DNA of 61,670 bases, filler included. It is 8 parts of 8 records of this genome, joined end to end, with 100 filler letters (N's around TTAATTAATTAA, not from the genome) between each part and the next. Parts side by side here need not be neighbours in the genome. Positions count along the whole stretch, not along the records: positions 42,505 to 48,447 come from SRR31147125_94442; 7 more parts are not named here. The stretch is one strand, 5' to 3'. The position numbers were made by a program, and so were the translations under genes. Of the stretch, positions 7,726 to 53,230 are shown one piece after another (positions within the stretch are counted from its first letter, which is position 1; every line of letters begins with the position of its first letter). The notes beneath the pieces are model-generated. The model was given only the letters and a program-made list of their open reading frames with translations. It searched no databases and had not been told where the DNA came from.

Positions 7726-7825
7726 NNNNNNNNNNNNNNNNNNNNNNNNNNNNNNNNNNNNNNNNNNNNTTAATTAATTAANNNNNNNNNNNNNNNNNNN
7801 NNNNNNNNNNNNNNNNNNNNNNNNN
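7726..7825. other. Artificial contig linker
   Basis: N-run with TTAATTAATTAA (stops in all six frames). Confidence 0.99.
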
Positions 7826-12866: not shown

Positions 12867-13263
12867 CTAATTATAAATTTCATTTTTTAGTTTGCTAATG
12901 TTTTCACAGGCTCTTTTCGAATAGGCCAAATATCTATCTTTCTTGGATTTGATTCTTTTTTCAAGCGGTTTCATCAAACCAAAATTTGCATTCATAGGCT
13001 TTAACTTATCTGTAACTGGATTAGTAGTATATTTTATCATAGCACCAATCATCGTAGTATCATCTGGTACTAAAGATGCTTTATTCTCTATTAATCTTGC
13101 AGCGTTCATAGCCGCCCATAAACCTGATGCAGTAGATTCAATATATCCTTCCACTCCCATCATCTGTCCTGCCATATATAACCCCTTCCGCTCCTTAATT
13201 TGCAGACTAGTATCAATAAGTTTTGGAGAATTTATATATGTATTTCTATGCATAACACCATAC
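12867..13263 (-). CDS. trmFO: tRNA (U54) methyltransferase TrmFO, C-terminal part
   Basis: MHRNTYINSP, AGQ..GVEGY.ES.ASG, PMNANFG; truncated at contig edge. Confidence 0.92.
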
Positions 13264-13363
13264 NNNNNNNNNNNNNNNNNNNNNNNNNNNNNNNNNNNNN
13301 NNNNNNNTTAATTAATTAANNNNNNNNNNNNNNNNNNNNNNNNNNNNNNNNNNNNNNNNNNNN
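13264..13363. other. Artificial contig linker
   Basis: N-run with TTAATTAATTAA. Confidence 0.99.
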
Positions 13364-13432
13364 CCCCCCTTATCGATCGCTACGGATGGGTGGGGAAACA
13401 CAAGCTTTTATTTCCGACCATTCATCCCGTGC

Positions 13433-14272
13433 TCAGGCCGGCCAGCACTGGGTCCCTCCGTCGACCCTGAGGACCTGTCCGCTGATGTAACTGGCTGCGT
13501 CGGAGGCAAGAAACGCAACCGCTGACGCAATCTCCTCCGGCCACCCGTAGCGATCCAGCGTCCCGCCCCTGACTGTACGCTCTGCATCCGTCTCCCTGGA
13601 TGCCAGAAACCGTTCGGTAACCGTATCCCCCGGGGCAACCACGTTCACGTTGATATCGTATGGCCGAAGTTGCAACGCGAGACAGCGGCTGTACTCGTGA
13701 AGTGCGGCCTTGGCAGATCCGTAGATCGCTGAACCGGGGATTCCGGTAAGCGCGGCGATGCTGCCAATGTTGACGACCTTCCCGACCCTCCGCTCCATCA
13801 TCTCCGGCACCACCGCCTTGCAGCACAGCACACAGGTGAGGAAATTGCGATCCATGACGACCCCGATGTCCTCGGGAGAAATGGAGAGCGCATCGTTGCC
13901 CTCCGGCTTGCCGGCCATCTCCGCCGCGACCCCGCGGCTGCCGATGTCGCCGCCGGCACAGTTGACCAGGATATCTATCTGCCCCATCTGTTCGTGAATT
14001 TCCGAAACAATGCCCTGTACGACATCGTAATCGGTCAGGTCGCCGGTAACAGCTATACAGGAAGTCTGGTACTTCTTTTCTATTGCCGCCGCATTGGCAA
14101 CAAGGCTCTCTCCCTCGCCGAAGACCCTCGGCGAATCAGGTCTGCTGCCGTGAATCACCACCTTCGCCCCCTTCGATGCGAAATACTCGGCGATCGATTT
14201 ACCGATTCCACGGGAAGAACCGGTTATCCAGGTGACTTTATCCTGCAGCGTGTTTTGCAAATTCTCGTTCAT
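13433..14272 (-). CDS. SDR family oxidoreductase
   Basis: TGSSRGIG, NCAG, YGSAK, VAPG, ISGQVL.VDGG. Confidence 0.93.
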   Translation of the reverse strand: MNENLQNTLQDKVTWITGSSRGIGKSIAEYFASKGAKVVIHGSRPDSPRVFGEGESLVANAAAIEKKYQTSCIAVTGDLTDYDVVQGIVSEIHEQMGQIDILVNCAGGDIGSRGVAAEMAGKPEGNDALSISPEDIGVVMDRNFLTCVLCCKAVVPEMMERRVGKVVNIGSIAALTGIPGSAIYGSAKAALHEYSRCLALQLRPYDINVNVVAPGDTVTERFLASRETDAERTVRGGTLDRYGWPEEIASAVAFLASDAASYISGQVLRVDGGTQCWPA

Positions 14273-43062: not shown

Positions 43063-43073
43063 GAGGAGATGAT

Positions 43074-43105
43074 AAGAGACCGCTTAATTTAAGCGGTCTC
43101 TTTTT
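43074..43105 (+). terminator. Rho-independent terminator
   Basis: AAGAGACCGCTTA-att-TAAGCGGTCTCTT followed by a T-tract. Confidence 0.9.
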
Positions 43106-43252
43106 GTATGCGTAAATTTGATTTGAATATTCTGCGCAGACTTAGCCATGGAAATGAGAACCGTAAAGCAAGCTGCGCCTGAAAAAAACATTTGTTTTGG
43201 TTGGCCGCTATGATAGAATTAGTGTATAGAGGTTAGTTAAAGGCGGTGAAGC

Positions 43253-45411
43253 ATGTTAAGCGTATTAGAAGGGCTGAATGAGCGGCAGCGTGAAGCGGCG
43301 AGCGCAACAGAAGGGTTTATAAGAGTTATTGCGGGGGCGGGATCCGGCAAGACACGGGCATTGTCGCACCGTTTTGCGTATCTTGTTAATGAAATCGGCA
43401 TCATGCCGGGCAGCATACTTTGCGTTACTTTCACAAACAAATCCGCCAATGAGATGAGGCAGAGAATCCGCCGACTTACCGGAGACAACGACACAGGTTA
43501 CATCAGCACGTTCCACGGTTTTTGTGTAAGCGTATTGCAGGAAGACAGCAACGCAGTGCAGTACCCAAAAAGCTTCTTAGTGCTCGACAACAGCGACATT
43601 GACGCTATGCTAAAGATAATATACGAAGAAAGAGAGCTGACACTTCGGCACAAGACGTTTGCAAAAGCCCGTGACATGATAGAGATACGCAAGCTCTTGA
43701 AAGAACCAAAGTACTTTGAGCACATGATAGCTATGCCTATAGAGCGGCTGCACGAGATGTATTTAGGCGCAACGGAAACGGACGACATCATTTTTTACGG
43801 TTACCTGTATCAGCAGAAAAAGTGCTTTGGGCTTGATTACAACGACCTTATCAAATACGTTCTGCATATATTCGATATTAATGAGGAGATAAAGCTGAAG
43901 TGGCAAAAACGCCTCGAGTATATCATGATAGACGAATATCAGGATATAGACGAGCTGCAGTATAAGCTTATGAAGGTGTTGTGCGCTTATCACAAAAATC
44001 TGTTTATAGTCGGTGACCCAGACCAGACGATATATACCTGGCGCGGCGCAAGCGTAAAATACATACTTGATTTTGATAAAGAGTTTCCGGATGTGCGCAC
44101 TATCATGATGATGGAGAACTATCGCTCTACGCCCCAGATCATCGCCGCAGCAAATTCGCTTATAGACAAGAACAAGACAAGAGTTAAGAAAGACATCATA
44201 CCCACACTGCCGGACGGGGACACTCCGATATACCACCACGCAAAGACAACGCAGGGGCAGGCGGAGTGGATGGCGGAGAGAATAATAGAGCTTGCAGATT
44301 TAGGGGTGAAACTAGCTGATATAACTGTTCTATATCGGGCGCACTACGTTTCCCGCACGCTTGAAGCTGTGTTTTTAAAGAAAGAGATACCGTATACGAT
44401 ATACAGCGGAGTTCCGTTCTTTGGGCGAAGAGAGATAAAGGACGTTTTAAGTTACCTGCGGCTCATCGCATACAAGGACGACTTGTCATTTATGCGTATT
44501 GTCAACGTACCCAAGCGCAACATAGGCGAAAAGAGGATGCGCTTTTTGCAAGAGTTTGCAGACAGAGAAAAGTGCCCGCTTTATACTGCACTTGAGAGGA
44601 CTATAAACGACGACATTTTCAAGAACACAAAGGCAAAGCAGTTTTTGAGCCTGATAGAAAAGTTCAGTGCAGGGTATCATGACGTGCCTGTTTCCGAGCT
44701 GCTTTCAAAAGTGTTGGAGCAGAGCGGATATGAAAAAATGCTGAGGACGGAAGGAAGCCAGGAGCGGCTTGACAACTTGGCCGAGCTTAAGCAGTCTATC
44801 TATGAATACGAAACATCCTGCGGAGAAGAGCTTGCACTTGAAGACTACCTTTCGCACGTGGCGCTGCTTACCAACACAGATGCGGATTCGGGCAAGAACG
44901 CAGTTAAGTTTATGACGGTGCACACCGCAAAAGGCCTTGAGTTTAAAAACGTGTTCCTCTGCAGTTTAAGCGAAGGCATATTCCCCTCCAAAAAGACCGC
45001 AACGCCGGCGGCAATGGAGGAAGAGAGAAGGCTTGCGTTCGTTGCAATAACACGTGCGCAGGAGCGGCTTTTCCTTTCCGACGCACAGGGCGAAATTATG
45101 ACGGCACATACCAGTACCCGTCACGCTTTATTTTCAACATAGACAAGCATCTTTTGAATTATGAAGTGGAGCTGGAGGACAGCCTTATAAAAGAATCCGA
45201 CTGGTATATAAAAAGCAGCCAGGCAATTTTAGAAGAGACGGCGGCAAGGAAAGTGTTTAAACCGGGCGAGCGGGTAGTGCACAGCATTATGGGCAGCGGA
45301 AGTATTGTTGACATCGACAGGGACAAAGCGGCTTATATAATCAAGTTTGACGACATCGAGACTGTAAGAAGTATTAGCTTTAGGGCGAAGCTGGTGGAAG
45401 AGGAGGGGTAG
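43253..45411 (+). CDS. UvrD/PcrA-family helicase (frameshift at G3 ~45088-45090)
   Basis: AGAGSGKT, DEYQD, VGDPDQ.IY, NYRS, HTAKGLEF, EERRL..VA.TRA; shifted frame gives YPSRFI and a Tudor-like tail. Confidence 0.92.
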
Positions 45412-45420
45412 GTAGAAAAG

Positions 45421-45447
45421 AAAAGAGACCGTAATACAGTCTCTTTT
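45421..45447. terminator. Bidirectional terminator between convergent genes
   Basis: AAAAGAGAC...GTCTCTTTT inverted repeat. Confidence 0.7.
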
Positions 45448-45480
45448 AAGCATATCTAGAATCTACAGATAAAAACTTTG

Positions 45481-46760
45481 TTAATTAGTGAAACCAAAAT
45501 GAGTATGATATTCTTTAATTGCTCTTTGATCAGTTAAGCTAGCAACATAATCTTTTGCTAATATTACATTGTACAAAGGAATATTATAATTATCTCCTTC
45601 TGAATCAATTTCATTACCGATTACTAGATTAAAATTATATTGAGAAACTTTATTCTTTGCAATACCAATTTTTTCATCGGGTTTCCCATAGTTTTTTTTC
45701 ATATAGTCAGATTGTTTTAATAATTTATGCTTATCACTAAAACTAGTATCTATTAACTTTGGTGAAAATGCGTATAGATAGAAAAGAGAACTTATTATTT
45801 GTGATGCTCTAAAGTTTGCTGCAATTACTCTGGAATCTTTATGAAGAAGACCAGATTGCAATTTTATCCAGATTTCAGACATACAATCCTTAATATCAGA
45901 CGAAAAATCTATTAAATAGGAACCAAAGTCTTTAATTTCATTTTTATCATTAACTTTAACCAACCTCTTTTCGCTTGCAGAAAGGACATCTTCCATAACT
46001 ATTTTAAGAATAGCTCTTCGTTGAGAAACTAATAAATTATAAAGGGAGTTAGATGAATCGTCTAAACTAACCATACTAAAGTCAATTGGCGACTTATTAA
46101 AAAGTCTGCACTTCAGAATGTGCTCAAAGCGAATGGCTCCCATTTTAGTTCCATCTTCAATATCTGAAAGCATGTAAGAAATTTTATCAGCAATACGAAC
46201 TGTTTGAGACTCTAAGCTTCCAAAGCCTGTATCAATAGATGCTTTATGTTTACTGCTTTTTAAGATAACATCTTGACTAAGTAAATCTCCACTTTTCCTA
46301 AATGTATGTTTGGCAATACATTCTATGGTTTCTTTCATTAGATTTAAGCCGTTAAAACCTCCTAATGCTATTGAAGTATATGGATTCTCTAAATACTCAA
46401 CAACATCTAACCCATGTTCATAGTGATTAAAACCACCAAGCTTTTCTTTAATACTATTAAGAATATTATTTAATGCACATTCACCCCCATGGCCAAAGGG
46501 AGTATGACCAATATCATGACAAAGTGCCCCTGCTTCAATTAAATCGTTATTTAAACCAAAGGAACTTCCGATAGTTGTTGCAAGTTGCATTACTTCGATA
46601 CTATGTGTCAGTCGGGTTCTTACTCCACTTATTTCATCATGTTCGAAACTAAACACTTGACATTTATTTGCTAATTTCCTAAAGCTTTCAGACCAAATTA
46701 TTCTATCCCTATCACGCTGAAACTCAAGTCGAAAACCATCGTTTTTCTGGTCATTTCGCC
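45481..46760 (-). CDS. dNTP triphosphohydrolase (dGTPase, HD superfamily) domain
   Basis: FQRDRDRII.S..FRKL..K.QVF, RTRLTHS, HDIGHTPFGH.GE, AD.ISY...DIED, DYVASLTD; no ATG of its own upstream of these motifs. Confidence 0.92.
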
Positions 46761-48044
46761 TTTTGAATCTGTAATCGCTAAAGGACCAAAATTTGTTGTT
46801 TCAAGAATCATTTTAGGAGTACGTCTATTATTTGATGTATTAGTTCTCCATAAAAGTGCAAGTTTATTTAAAGTTTTTAATTCTGAAGTTATGCCAGAGT
46901 ATTTCTTTTCAAGTATAGTTGAAACTTCATCAAAAGTTTTTCCATCTTGCCAGAGGGAAAGAGTTTCTTTACTTAGCTCATAGTTTTTAACAGAAAATCC
47001 TATTTGATTACTAGTCCACATATGTACTTTCTCATTTTTATTTCGTCTTGTACTTACATCTTCAGAAAATTCTTTTATTAATGAAAAGTACTTATCCTGA
47101 TCATTATCCTGCTTGTCTTTTTTTATAAACACCCTTAAATGATTAGCTTGGTTTTCTAAATGGAAAGATATTATTTCATCATCATAGAATTGCTTAAAAT
47201 CTGATTTATTTTCTTTATTATTTTGTAATATTAATAAATCGCTTTTTCGCCATGGACGATCAGAACTAGTTTTAGTCTTATCTAGCATTATATTTTCAAA
47301 ACTAGGAATTACATACTCAAAGTAATCACTATTAATTTCCAATATATACATACCTTTATCTATTATAGATTTAACGTATTTTTGTCGAGATTTAATTATA
47401 TCCGGTCTTGTATTTTTTGACGGAATTGAAATTATTATATAGGAATTCTTTTTAATTAAAGACATTGCTTGATTAAGAAATTGCTCCATATGTTTTTCAT
47501 ACCATGGAGGATCCATGAAGATAACATCAAATTGAGCTTTGTCTGAATCAGGGATTGGCTCATTTAGAAGATTTATACGTTGAGAATCAATATTATTATC
47601 ATTTAATTCCTTTACTAAATCTTTATCAATATCATATACTTTAATTGATGTATTAAAACATTTTTTATAATAGAAAGCCACTGTTGGAATACCAAAAAAA
47701 GCAACTTTTCCTCTATTAGCTAATCTTTTAATTTGAAAGGCAATCTTTTCAATAGAATCAAGTGAAAACCACCATTGACTATACATAGAATTAGGTGCTG
47801 GCAAATCATAAATAAAGTATGAAGTTTCGCTACGTGCATTTAATTTCTTTACTTTTAATTCTGTTCGATACGCTTTATATACATCTGGTGTTTTTATTAA
47901 TTCATCATAGATATTTTGAGCAAATGGTATATCTACACTACCTAATTCACGAAGTATTTCATTAAAATCATCAGATTTATGATAAAGAAAGAACTCTATT
48001 TCATCACGCAACTGATTATTGTAACTACATTCTTTATCTTCCAT
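46698..48044 (-). CDS. Class I SAM methyltransferase-like domain, probably fused to the dGTPase
   Basis: SQWWF, VAFFG.PT, YDID, FDVIFMDPPWY; RBS GGAG before the ATG at 48044. Confidence 0.75.
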   Translation of the reverse strand: MEDKECSYNNQLRDEIEFFLYHKSDDFNEILRELGSVDIPFAQNIYDELIKTPDVYKAYRTELKVKKLNARSETSYFIYDLPAPNSMYSQWWFSLDSIEKIAFQIKRLANRGKVAFFGIPTVAFYYKKCFNTSIKVYDIDKDLVKELNDNNIDSQRINLLNEPIPDSDKAQFDVIFMDPPWYEKHMEQFLNQAMSLIKKNSYIIISIPSKNTRPDIIKSRQKYVKSIIDKGMYILEINSDYFEYVIPSFENIMLDKTKTSSDRPWRKSDLLILQNNKENKSDFKQFYDDEIISFHLENQANHLRVFIKKDKQDNDQDKYFSLIKEFSEDVSTRRNKNEKVHMWTSNQIGFSVKNYELSKETLSLWQDGKTFDEVSTILEKKYSGITSELKTLNKLALLWRTNTSNNRRTPKMILETTNFGPLAITDSKGEMTRKTMVFDLSFSVIGIE

Positions 48045-48080
48045 AAAAGCTCCAATCGAATTTATAATACTTTGTATATT

Positions 48081-48110
48081 ATTGTAACATAATATATAGT
48101 TGGGTTCCAA
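48081..48110 (-). promoter_or_regulatory. Putative sigma70/sigmaA promoter of the MTase-dGTPase gene
   Basis: TTGGAA-N18-TACAAT with an extended TG. Confidence 0.4.
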
Positions 48111-48249
48111 TAAATACAAAGAATCTTTATAATATCAACATTTGTCACACTCCCTCCATTCTGCTATCATATACGCATATAATCGTCAATATATTCATAG
48201 TAGTGATACTAACAGGCGAAAACAGACATCATAAATGTGGAGGCAGAAG

Positions 48250-48447
48250 ATGAGCATAGAAGTGCGCAGGCTAGACGAAAAAGAGCTGAAAGAGTTTATC
48301 AGGCTTCCGTTTAGGTTGTATAAAAAGGATAAGTTGTGGGTTCCGCCGCTTATATCCGAAGTGAAGAATATGCTGGACTGCGAAAAGAACAAGTTTTTAA
48401 AATCGGAGCACGCTTTTTTTATGGCGTACAGGGACGGAAAAGCCGGT
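48250..48447 (+). CDS. GNAT-like (YghO-type) protein, N-terminal part
   Basis: FI.LP..LY..D..WVPPL ... F.AYRDG; truncated at contig edge. Confidence 0.75.
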
Positions 48448-48547
48448 NNNNNNNNNNNNNNNNNNNNNNNNNNNNNNNNNNNNNNNNNNNNTTAATTAAT
48501 TAANNNNNNNNNNNNNNNNNNNNNNNNNNNNNNNNNNNNNNNNNNNN
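48448..48547. other. Artificial contig linker
   Basis: N-run with TTAATTAATTAA. Confidence 0.99.
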
Positions 48548-50132: not shown

Positions 50133-52010
50133 TTAGAAATAAACATCGTCATCAAACTCAGGCTGTATGGTAAGAGTTCTTTTGTTCTTATCATATGTAT
50201 ACCTTAGCTTCTTATACGCGCAGTATTTTTGCAGCTTTAAAGAAAAGGACTTTGAACTTATATTGGCAGCCATGGAGTCACTAAAAAGGCACTTATACGC
50301 ATTGAAACAATCCTGGAAATTAACGGGCTCACACCTCGGTATCTCATCAGCGTAGTCAATGAGTATCCCTCCTACAGCCATTCGCAGTTTTTTATATTCC
50401 AATGTAGATGAGTGGTACGGCAGGATCCTACTCCCTGCATTGTAAAAAACCTCAACGCAAGAAAACATGAATTTGTAGAAAGCATTCCATTGGTGGGAGT
50501 CCCAATCATCAAATAAGATCCCAAAATCATCCGTAGGGGTATGACTACCATTGTAATAGGGATAGACTTCAAACTCATATTTACGTCTATCGTGTGAGTT
50601 ACCACTCCCCTTTATGGCGTAGTTCGTCGTGACGATTGTCTTGGGATTATCCTTCTGTGGAAATCGTATTTTTGTCTTATATTTCTGTTCAAATTCATGG
50701 CCATCTGTGATTTTTGAAAAGTAGCTTTCAAAATCAAACTCGTATTTGACATCATCTAAAAGTAGAGATTCCGTTGCGACGCTCATATTTTGAAATGCGA
50801 ATGTGTCTTGATTCGGCTTGTGGTTTTTGCCATCAAAAAACGCTTGATTCCGCATCTTTGATATGGCCTTGGCAATGATCGTCTTCCCAGTACCACCTTC
50901 GGGCGTATCACTGATTTGACCGTCAGTAAGGATAATGGCGACGGAGTAAGAGGGGTCATTGTATCGGGTCAGTAGGTATCCAATAACCGTTTTGAGTGCC
51001 TTGAACCTGGGTATATCCAAAGTAATAGAATGGCTTTTTTTGTCGGGGCTTACCACTTCGTGAGAACATACGTTTTTACAGAACTGCTCAAAGACGCTCG
51101 GTGCTGTATCACTGGTGTCGATGGTGTGAGCATTTATTGATTCTTCCCATATGAATTCACCGGTTTGTCGTAGGTTCTGATAGTCCGAGAAACAGACACC
51201 GACATTGGCAACCACAGACACAAAACCGTTTTTGAAATAAAAATGTGTCGCGTCTTTGGTGTCTCGATGCTTATTGAATTGAACTCTTTTCAGAGTTTCA
51301 ATTTTTGGCTCAGTTACGTGCTTGGCGACGTCCTCCCGCAGTTCTGCTTGTAGCTGATACCTTGTGTATCCTGGGGCAATATCCAAGGGCAGACGGTTTA
51401 TAGCCTCGTTTATGAGAAAATTTCTCACATCACCCACGTCAGCTTCTACACACACATTATTTTTCACTCGAATCAGTCGTTTGTCGCCATAAGCCTCGGT
51501 ATTGGAAAACCCCTCGTCCTGGAAAAACCAATACATCGCCTCGTTTTTGATTATCAGGCAAATACCCTCATCGGTTGACTCAACCTCCCAAAAACAGAAA
51601 GGCAGTTTGATTTCTTTGACCGCCCGATTGATTTCTTTGTTCTTTTTTCTGAATCTTTCGTTCTTCCACTTGGCAACCGCGTTTTTTAGATCCCTTTTTA
51701 ATGCTTGCCTTGTGGTGCCGGTGGCCTCACTCAATGCAACAATGCATAGCTGTAAATATGAATCGTCAATATCCCTATGGATCTTTTTGATTTTTAATTC
51801 CAACCATTGAGAAAGAAGCACTTTGGGGTTATCCTTGTTCTCGTCAATCCACCCCAAGAAATCATCATGCAGCTCATCGCTGGTTTTAGTTGGTTCGCCA
51901 GCGTGGAGAAAATAACAGGATTCCCCATGCTCCATGCCGTTGATGACAGGCTTCCCGGTTTCGGGATTTGCATAAAGCCTAGCGGTACATCGACGGCCGG
52001 AATCGCTCAT
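50133..52010 (-). CDS. SF3-like primase-associated helicase
   Basis: Walker A GGTGKT, Walker B LLLDD, motif C VTTN, arginine finger RRK. Confidence 0.8.
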   Translation of the reverse strand: MSDSGRRCTARLYANPETGKPVINGMEHGESCYFLHAGEPTKTSDELHDDFLGWIDENKDNPKVLLSQWLELKIKKIHRDIDDSYLQLCIVALSEATGTTRQALKRDLKNAVAKWKNERFRKKNKEINRAVKEIKLPFCFWEVESTDEGICLIIKNEAMYWFFQDEGFSNTEAYGDKRLIRVKNNVCVEADVGDVRNFLINEAINRLPLDIAPGYTRYQLQAELREDVAKHVTEPKIETLKRVQFNKHRDTKDATHFYFKNGFVSVVANVGVCFSDYQNLRQTGEFIWEESINAHTIDTSDTAPSVFEQFCKNVCSHEVVSPDKKSHSITLDIPRFKALKTVIGYLLTRYNDPSYSVAIILTDGQISDTPEGGTGKTIIAKAISKMRNQAFFDGKNHKPNQDTFAFQNMSVATESLLLDDVKYEFDFESYFSKITDGHEFEQKYKTKIRFPQKDNPKTIVTTNYAIKGSGNSHDRRKYEFEVYPYYNGSHTPTDDFGILFDDWDSHQWNAFYKFMFSCVEVFYNAGSRILPYHSSTLEYKKLRMAVGGILIDYADEIPRCEPVNFQDCFNAYKCLFSDSMAANISSKSFSLKLQKYCAYKKLRYTYDKNKRTLTIQPEFDDDVYF

Positions 52011-53230
52011 AGGATCCGATAAAGTAGCGCCATCGTATTTGGGGAGATTTTTTTGACTTCATCGACAGAAACGACACCCAAGTCATCGTCATCAAAGTGA
52101 AGCAGGATATCGCCGTAAAGATCAGAATATACTTTTTCGACATTACAGGCGGCCAGAAGGATTTTTTCACAGGTCTCCAGACTTTTACCCGTTTTTTTTG
52201 CCATAGCTGGTGCGCGTTTCTTGGCGCATTTTTCAGCGGTTTTTCTCGCCTCTGGTAGTATTGCCTCACGAGCTGCAGCATTCCATGCATCGAACTTTTC
52301 AAGCTCTTCTGGCGTCAAATCCGGTATCAATGCAGGGTTGAATATCCCGCCCTTATGGAAAACCGGATCAGGTCGTTTTTGAGTCCACCCTTCAGGAATG
52401 ACGGCCCCGGCTGGAAAGTCAATGCGCTCTGGACTGTTCAAAACTGCTGCATCAAACAAATCAGACCGGAGTAACATCGCCCCATTATCGGCAAGTTTGA
52501 AATAACCATATCCATTAATGCAGGATCGTTTCATCAATATATCTTTGTATCGCTGCATATTTGCACCAGGGACTACGGGAAAATACGTATGGTCTCCGGC
52601 TCCCTCGCCTGTAACCACTGCACCGGTTTCATCATAGATTAAACTTGATGCGGATCCACAAACCATTTTTGCAACGTTGGCCCAATACCCACCGGTTAAC
52701 TCGTCAATCGCTTGTTGACGCTTCTCCCATGACAACGGTTCTCTGGTAGGATGCGGGTCGTAATCTTTCATTTGAACAAATGGTCTTGAATTGTGGAAAT
52801 CGAAATCTTTTTTTGTCCGCGTGACGGCATCTTTTGGAGTACTGTTTTTGAATTTCTTCTTGAACCGACGCTCGGAAAAGACGTTGAAAACTTTTGGTAC
52901 GTCTTTTTTGGGGACACCCTGAACATATACCTGACTAGTATTCAGGCTCTGGGTTAACGCTGGCAATTCATGAAAATCGATATTGTGGACTTCACCGGTG
53001 CCCACTGCAAAATAGCAACCTGAACTATCTTTTATTACGTTTCCATCCGGATCTCTGGATATGCTTTTTGTGCATTTCCGGAGAGAAGTCAAAACGGTAA
53101 TGCTGATTGGAATCTTGGTGGGATCGGCTGACCGCTCTTGATTTTCATCATCAGAATTGTTATATTTTTCAACAGGTTCATCATCCGGGGGTGCCTCACT
53201 GCCAGGGGCGCTTCCTTCATTTTTCAGCAT
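52007..53230 (-). CDS. AEP-like primase N-terminal part, probably fused to the helicase (A7 run 52048-52054)
   Basis: DxD (KDYD) and G.H.YF motifs; the alternative frame runs into the helicase ORF. Confidence 0.6.
   Translation of the reverse strand: MLKNEGSAPGSEAPPDDEPVEKYNNSDDENQERSADPTKIPISITVLTSLRKCTKSISRDPDGNVIKDSSGCYFAVGTGEVHNIDFHELPALTQSLNTSQVYVQGVPKKDVPKVFNVFSERRFKKKFKNSTPKDAVTRTKKDFDFHNSRPFVQMKDYDPHPTREPLSWEKRQQAIDELTGGYWANVAKMVCGSASSLIYDETGAVVTGEGAGDHTYFPVVPGANMQRYKDILMKRSCINGYGYFKLADNGAMLLRSDLFDAAVLNSPERIDFPAGAVIPEGWTQKRPDPVFHKGGIFNPALIPDLTPEELEKFDAWNAAAREAILPEARKTAEKCAKKRAPAMAKKTGKSLETCEKILLAACNVEKVYSDLYGDILLHFDDDDLGVVSVDEVKKISPNTMALLYRIL

Follow-up and report, generated by a model that had tools for sequence, protein, structure and literature searches.

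A methyltransferase-fold module fused to a dGTPase-family HD hydrolase: a candidate anti-phage protein encoded by a gene apparently split in a draft assembly

The stretch of DNA analysed here (61,670 nucleotides, hereafter the window) carries on its minus strand, between positions 45481 and 48044, a gene that appears in the deposited sequence as two overlapping open reading frames (ORFs), one methyltransferase (MTase)-like and one encoding a dGTPase. Read as a single gene, it specifies one intact protein of 854 residues, in which an N-terminal module (N-module) of ~420 residues precedes an HD-type deoxynucleoside triphosphate (dNTP) triphosphohydrolase. The N-module comprises a helical domain, a BpsA/METTL5-like, S-adenosylmethionine (SAM)-dependent amino-alkyl (methyl) transferase domain with a DPPWY motif, and a small third domain. 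By a small balance of probability, we infer that the protein acts in defence as a dNTPase under the control of its N-module, a reading that takes in a defence role, depletion of dNTPs in vivo and control of the activity. The HD half would be the effector, hydrolysing dNTPs against phage, and the N-module would set the timing of the hydrolysis by means of a ligand, a purine nucleotide or a nucleic acid, that is bound or methylated in the SAM/DPPW pocket.

The MTase-like frame (46701-48044, minus strand) starts with an ATG at 48044 and ends with a TAA at 46698-46700, and the dGTPase frame (45481-46800, minus strand; stop codon 45481-45483) is closed upstream by a TGA at 46801-46803. The two frames overlap and are offset by one base at a run of four adenines, 46761-46764. 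The N-terminal dGTPase motif GFRLEFQRDRDRIIWSESFRKLANKCQVF sits one frame upstream (-1), beneath the end of the MTase ORF, and the earliest start codon in the dGTPase frame is a GTG at 46656, downstream of that motif. The overlap, the TGA and the lack of a start before the dGTPase motif, from which the preliminary description had argued for a fusion, are all found in the sequence. In an alignment to seven fused homologues, the window matches in the MTase frame until PLAITDSK and in the dGTPase frame from KRRNDQKNDGFRLEF on; because the alignment switches frame between these two points, one base is missing in the A4 run. A read-derived contig locates the missing base at the same position, which is also where it had been placed at the outset. 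In one public sequencing run, made from what is probably the source sample, 0.99 of the sampled words are present, and a 7327-nt contig built independently from the reads (depth 9) spans 43072-48440 with no mismatches and two indels. At the A4 homopolymer (46761-46764, minus strand) this contig has five adenines (a T inserted after 46760 on the plus strand; depth 9.04; one contig), and its other indel falls in a helicase gene ~1.7 kb away; both are homopolymer additions and each mends a gene. Both extra bases restore broken genes, and it is most parsimonious to conclude that two homopolymers are one base short in the deposited consensus and that the break is an assembly error. Weighing on the other side, the read-derived contig shares its organism with the deposited assembly, is in that respect not independent, and, like contigs in general, may mask minority variants. 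From a second run of the same sample (X2), no contig was placed on the stretch.

With the base restored, coordinate arithmetic gives a product of 428 + 426 = 854 residues, and the single fusion of ~854 residues proposed in the preliminary description is upheld both by the existence of fused homologues and by the restored frame in the read-derived contig. The out-of-frame tail of the MTase ORF, GEMTRKTMVFDLSFSVIGIE up to the stop codon (46698-46760, minus strand), has no counterpart in the homologues and a predicted local distance difference test score (pLDDT) below 50 at residues 419-448; the tail is an artefact that arises from the missing base, and lies outside the protein. We consider it very improbable that the frameshift is real in the organism, be it a pseudogene, a phase-variable gene or a pair of frames joined by ribosomes that undergo programmed -1 slippage at the A-run. 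The four adenines are present in the deposited sequence, and A_AAA_G and A_AAA_A are contexts in which ribosomes slip readily; however, the extra base is present in the read-derived contig, the second homopolymer difference 1.7 kb off likewise repairs a gene, no further damage is visible, and identity to the homologues runs unbroken over the junction. Slippage is also no feature of the family, as the fusion occupies a single frame in 35 of 38 related loci. A programmed -1 frameshift gene was accordingly rejected, the two-frame layout being conserved neither in these relatives nor in the read-derived DNA.

A search limited to long proteins returned seven fused hits (854-872 residues; 42-61% identity over the N-terminal part), all seven with both PF10237 and PF01966, and a scan of Joint Genome Institute (JGI) metagenome contigs gave 68 loci. 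Among the 38 gene-called loci in which both halves are present (37 metagenome loci and L001; L023/L024, L037/L049 and L043/L044/L052 are duplicates), one uninterrupted ORF of at least 823 residues is found in 35, with lengths of 823-891 residues in 33 and of 1047 and 1057 residues in two; the remaining three are shorter (794, 631 and 811 residues). Full-length homologues thus make the fusion a natural family. Its members are sparse: a scan of 185,579 species-representative genomes by two peptide patterns found 15 loci, of which one, L001 in an NC10 metagenome-assembled genome (MAG), is fused. Viral contigs gave 78 pattern matches and zero relatives, phage records a single match, to the stand-alone module and not the fusion, on a scaffold labelled UNVERIFIED (MT835919), and plasmids seven matches, which concern the stand-alone module throughout and each cover less than 80% of the query. 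The close fused homologues come from metagenome sources only, and the sole name given, for one of them, is 'dGTPase'. In 31 fused proteins, the transferase motifs Q90/W91/W92, G118, P120, D140, D178-W181, TR, Y244, P..FE and WR..D are invariant and D138 is nearly so, and the HD set (H482, H511, D512, H515, H520, E523, D621, D629, E631 and D632, in the numbering of P0003) is likewise invariant; because both motif sets are maintained, both halves are evidently under constraint. As judged from these sequences, the fusion gene represents a rare, conserved, single-gene family.

The N-terminal half has a class I amino-methyltransferase fold that is closest to BpsA. PF10237 matches residues 87-209 with 40.1 bits (gathering threshold 23.2; model positions 4-128 of 166) and PF01861 (BpsA_C) matches with 28.9 bits (cut-off 27), next to weak matches to RsmD-like families and PADLOC mad2. 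For the AlphaFold model of the N-module, made with 107 sequences (pLDDT 88.4; predicted template modelling score (pTM) 0.87), the top Foldseek ranks are taken by 2qm3 and BpsA structures (PF01861; 5xnc, 6j27 and 2qm3); the likeness in fold extends to METTL5 (6h2u), with E-values of 1e-12 to 1e-10, and the alignment with 2qm3 runs over 319 columns and includes the N-terminal helical part. A full-length model of the closest fused homologue reaches a pLDDT of 85.8 and a pTM of 0.83. The domain around SQWW..DPPW, earlier likened to N6-adenine and BpsA-type enzymes, is thus PF10237/BpsA-like by its Pfam, Foldseek and fold matches.

In the model, the N-terminal helical domain (residues 1-80; 47805-48044, minus strand) consists of helices 2-22, 27-34, 39-49 and 53-80. 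The class I Rossmann transferase domain follows (residues ~81-280; 47205-47804, minus strand), with the motifs QWW, G.P(S/T), an acidic end of strand beta-2 and DPPWY, the DPPW being encoded at 47502-47513. This layout, a helical domain followed by a Rossmann domain, appears to be common to the N-module and 2qm3. The middle domain (residues ~281-420; 46785-47204, minus strand) has short strands and then three helices, with conserved R..F, VSTR and WTSN motifs; residues 283-418 gave no usable Protein Atlas match and the fold-search matches cover residues ~15-290 only, which is no evidence of a new fold. Identity of the N-module to BpsA and METTL5 is 13-18%, and the N-module differs from both by an added domain of ~140 residues and by the amino-methyltransferase DPPWY motif. 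Its genomic company consists of nucleotide enzymes and not polyamine genes, none of which was seen among the neighbours of the module or fused loci examined. With the EEF1AKMT1/Efm5-type members of PF10237 ('N6-adenineMlase'), the N-module has in common motif I, G.P(S/T), and motif IV, DPP(F/W), in a match that covers part of the Pfam model; the wider architecture of those proteins is not common to the window protein. The known characterised proteins of this type are eukaryotic protein-lysine methyltransferases.

The C-terminal half (residues ~429-854; 45481-46761, minus strand) scores 52.8 bits with PF01966 (cut-off 22) and 187.4 bits with TIGR01353 (cut-off 152.35), and the PADLOC dGTPase model, which has no curated cut-off here, matches at 1.7e-60; its earlier assignment as a dGTP/dNTP triphosphohydrolase is therefore sound. 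The best solved relative is TT1383 of Thermus (2dqb; 1.2e-32), with the H, HD and D residues aligned, followed by 9vwa and 9vwc; the codons of the HD pair are at 46513-46518, that of the first metal histidine at 46603-46605. All NCBIfam equivalogs scored under their cut-offs, among them the anti-phage model NF041026 (144.1 bits vs 400) and NF003701 (121.1 bits vs 383). By these scores the gene belongs to the dGTP triphosphohydrolase subfamily and falls outside the named anti-phage dGTPase equivalog (NF041026/PRK05318).

Enzymes of the dGTPase family deplete dNTPs and can protect from phage, as described in the preprint of Tal et al. (10.1101/2021.04.26.441389). The window protein resembles the anti-phage dGTPase (PDLC02374, NF041026) in being an HD-type dGTP triphosphohydrolase with the H..HD..D set, encoded by a single gene and matched by the PADLOC model, which would already flag the fusion gene. 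It differs in that the described proteins are without the ~430-residue N-terminal module and in that its hydrolase half is nearest to the Thermus enzyme and not to E. coli Dgt; the words 'methyltransferase' and 'fused' do not occur in the main text of Tal et al. A second precedent, as far as its main text describes it (Nat Commun 2026, PMC13519002), presents dGTPase domains as effector halves of immune fusions with SAM, NLR, TIR, CARD, death and SIR2 domains. These fusions and the window protein follow one logic, with a dGTPase as the effector in an immune protein of two parts, but the partner differs, being here a BpsA/METTL5-like transferase module; neither 'methyltransferase' nor 'MTase' occurs in the main text, and the supplements may list more architectures. 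No paper text was found that describes a dGTPase-methyltransferase fusion or the module operon considered below, a result that holds for the paper texts searched and on which supplements and figures may bear. The novelty claimed for the architecture therefore stands in part: no named system or paper text matches it, whereas the principle of a dGTPase effector fused to immune modules is already published in PMC13519002.

The N-module is widespread. Its profile matched 1935 cluster representatives at E <= 0.001, 1146 of them at E <= 1e-30; among 150 representatives listed, nearly all are stand-alone proteins of about 400-440 residues, the exceptions being mostly shorter, with P0006 alone identified as a fusion to the dGTPase. 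The commonest setting is a seven-gene operon that encodes a small DUF4160 or DUF6932 protein, an XRE-HTH + M78 peptidase protein (PADLOC RmrA/capH/capP-like), a DUF4186 protein, a radical SAM protein (weak pVip match, 1e-4), the module, an ASCH protein and a P-loop kinase (PADLOC VakA, 2.4e-8). It is found in Bacteroidota, Pseudoxanthomonas, a Caulobacteraceae MAG and conjugative plasmids of Tolypothrix (L084) and Rhizobium (L085). The domains were checked in L006 (6362-12054), DUF6932 in L072 and the plasmids by RefSeq annotation, in which the module is a 'hypothetical protein' on both; about a dozen further loci (including L004, L007 and L011-L014) were assigned by the pattern of ORF sizes only. 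On the plasmids the operon adjoins toxin-antitoxin, integrase, N-6 DNA methylase and CHAT genes. The operon has the look of a defence or modification system that acts on nucleotides by modifying them and is as yet undescribed.

In other settings, the module gene lies directly upstream of a gene for a PUA-like + calcineurin phosphoesterase protein (L005, 9812-12327; L086, 786-3712, the latter being MT835919, labelled 'Bacteriophage sp.'). An Anaeroplasmataceae MAG (L010, 5674-13293) encodes a 789-residue fusion of the module with a HAD hydrolase, whose C-terminal stretch is ASCH-like by eye and gave no Pfam match; it is flanked by genes for a radical SAM/Pol-beta protein, AbiEii and SAM synthetase (MetK). 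The two longest fused proteins (L035, 3090-6233, 1047 residues; L036, 2672-5845, 1057 residues) are triple fusions of a P-loop AAA_18/ADK-like kinase, the module and the dGTPase, and L082 encodes a 1204-residue protein with a weak PUA-like match. These neighbours recall PUA-Cal-HAD, which a preprint (bioRxiv 10.64898/2026.01.15.699771) presents as a defence shown by experiment to deplete dNTPs once m6-dAMP is bound by its PUA domain, with effectors of this kind linked to N6-adenine methylases. The window protein resembles the PUA-Calcineurin-CE-HAD system in the nucleotide-depletion type of its predicted action, and its N-module homologues adjoin PUA-like + calcineurin genes or are fused to HAD; its own effector, however, is an HD dNTPase, and it has no PUA, calcineurin or HAD domain. 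Membership of the window protein in PUA-Cal-HAD was therefore rejected, as such genes adjoin only the homologues of its N-module.

The preliminary description took the MTase-like domain for a sensor or regulator that gates dNTP hydrolysis; the N-module keeps all catalytic-type motifs, however, and instead of sensing passively it may work as an active transferase. D178, P180, W181 and Y182 are invariant in 107 module sequences, G118, P120 and P179 are nearly so (P179 in at least 90%), and the DPPW aligns with the DPPF of 2ift, an RsmD-type N2-guanine MTase. These features would fit a working methyltransferase that writes a signal or self-mark, for example on adenine or guanine in DNA or on free nucleotides, the methylated product then setting the activity or specificity of the dNTPase or marking host nucleic acid. 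The SAM synthetase gene that adjoins the module in L010 points the same way, as do the separate PUA-like or ASCH reader domains beside the module in other systems, which fit a writer-reader pair, and the mention in the PUA-Cal-HAD preprint of dedicated N6-adenine methylases next to PUA-calcineurin effectors. The dGTPase fusion, however, has no PUA or ASCH reader, so that another reader of the mark would be required; a target-recognition domain of the type usual in DNA MTases was not found, and the closest fold, BpsA, is that of an enzyme which transfers aminopropyl groups, not that of a DNA MTase. We regard such a writing function as rather unlikely. Even so, the results do not tell a sensor from a writer of a signal, which weakens the case for a defence dNTPase under the control of its N-module, a role that we infer.

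The fused gene is autonomous, and its surroundings are variable. For 141 neighbours (~120 residues or more, within 5 kb, at 34 loci; four duplicate loci and shorter ORFs were excluded), no neighbour is conserved, and the largest cluster, a DNA N6/N4 methylase, comprises three loci. Among the best 25 of 111 matched Pfam families are N6_N4 MTase (three), phage integrase (three) and ResIII (two), with one each of AbiH, CbtA, ORC-CDC6-like, PRTase-CE, IS66 and resolvase; the PADLOC tally for the same neighbours is dominated by redundant MTase_II models. Of ten immediate neighbours on the same strand, three have an informative Pfam match (PLD nuclease + Zn ribbon; HNH; DNA MTase) and seven have none. 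PADLOC matches were obtained for four of the ten nearest large neighbours, namely a stand-alone dGTPase (1.2e-142), AbiH, MTase_II/mad2 and a ZorD/DpdE-like SNF2 protein. As counts without a background rate, these surroundings are suggestive of defence. We note that in L032 the stand-alone defence-type dGTPase gene (12876-14234, minus strand) is convergent to the fused gene, so that two dGTPase genes adjoin each other.

Several observations weigh against a defence dNTPase. The hydrolase half is closest to the housekeeping-like Thermus-type group and scores well under the cut-off of the anti-phage equivalog; six of the ten nearest large neighbours have no PADLOC match; the housekeeping genes TIM, PDT, LepA and EF-Tu are also among the neighbours of fused loci, in the same 25 families and again with no background rate; and the contig that carries the fusion gene otherwise holds a ribosome hibernation factor, a UvrD-like helicase and a fragment of 71 residues, and no defence island. 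The first and third of these points, together with the housekeeping-like flanks in the window, would accord with a mobile bifunctional enzyme of nucleotide metabolism or nucleic-acid modification, which clears or makes modified nucleotides, for example, and has no part in immunity; pairs of ASCH and AAA_17 kinase genes have been tied to predicted base-modification operons (PMC7641849). We consider this improbable, however, in view of the sparse distribution (one fused locus in the species-representative genomes scanned), the variable neighbourhoods, the integrases, transposase, AbiH, restriction-type genes and defence-type dGTPase nearby, the XRE-M78 regulator of the RmrA/CapH-CapP kind in the related operon, and a gene composition that is foreign to the host contig.

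The composition of the gene is indeed foreign, as first described: G + C content is 0.25-0.34 over 45500-48250, compared with 0.42-0.49 in the adjoining helicase. The promoter-like sequence and the terminator noted in the preliminary description were both located, as consensus matches only. The former, TTGGAA-18-TACAAT with a TG (48081-48110, minus strand), lies 37 bases upstream of the ATG, and promoter-like sites in general numbered 17, compared with 9.1 +/- 5.9 in shuffles. The latter, a hairpin of 12 pairs followed by a T-run (45421-45447, minus strand), lies just past the stop codon, between the convergent helicase and fusion genes, and is the only terminator-like site within 45300-48448. 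Because of the low G + C content and these signals of its own, the gene was probably acquired horizontally. A search on both sides of the AT-rich segment for repeats or attachment sites found only short, chance-like repeats. The term 'AT-rich insert' used earlier is correct as to composition but not as to an island, since the segment is known only inside a 5.9-kb contig (42506-48448), as one gene.

That contig is one of several in the window, which consists of small draft contigs chained together by seven linkers of the form N..TTAATTAATTAA..N (at 7770, 13308, 27760, 35917, 42449, 48492 and 55078), and genes across a linker are not neighbours. The UvrD-like helicase (plus strand; UvrD-helicase and UvrD_C matches) is split in the deposited sequence into two ORFs, 43253-45142 and 45154-45411, its C-terminus (YPSRFIFNID...) running on in another frame, because one G is short at 45087-45090 (plus strand): the window has three G and the read-derived contig four (a G inserted after 45087). 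The 71-residue fragment had been named a GNAT gene, a name that we could not verify, as it gave no Pfam match at E <= 0.001. On another contig, two long ORFs (625 and 407 residues; 50133-53230, minus strand) gave no Pfam match at the same threshold and are unrelated to the fusion gene. The assembly seems liable to errors in homopolymers, which makes its other 'frameshifted' genes suspect as well; such errors of a draft assembly make genes appear falsely split.

Nucleotide depletion is an established anti-phage strategy, and the activation of its enzymes is mostly unexplained. The fusion gene joins an effector whose chemistry is established to a module that is strongly conserved. With clear mutational targets in the HD residues and the DPPW, the 854-residue protein is a tractable subject for the gating of dNTP hydrolysis, and the fusion poses a second question, whether a methyltransferase fold acts as the writer or as the reader of an infection signal. 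The module recurs in the company of nucleotide-targeting enzymes of at least three other kinds, of which PUA-Cal-HAD is reported in its preprint to respond to a methylated nucleotide. It is possible, though we hold the idea tentatively, that the module is a portable control unit of nucleotide-targeting immunity, in which a modified purine nucleotide, written with SAM or read by the DPPW pocket, switches on the joined effector. If so, its partners would include the HD dGTPase, PUA-calcineurin, the HAD phosphatase and, together with its kinase, a viperin-like radical-SAM enzyme, and the gene in the window would be the simplest form of the arrangement, one polypeptide.

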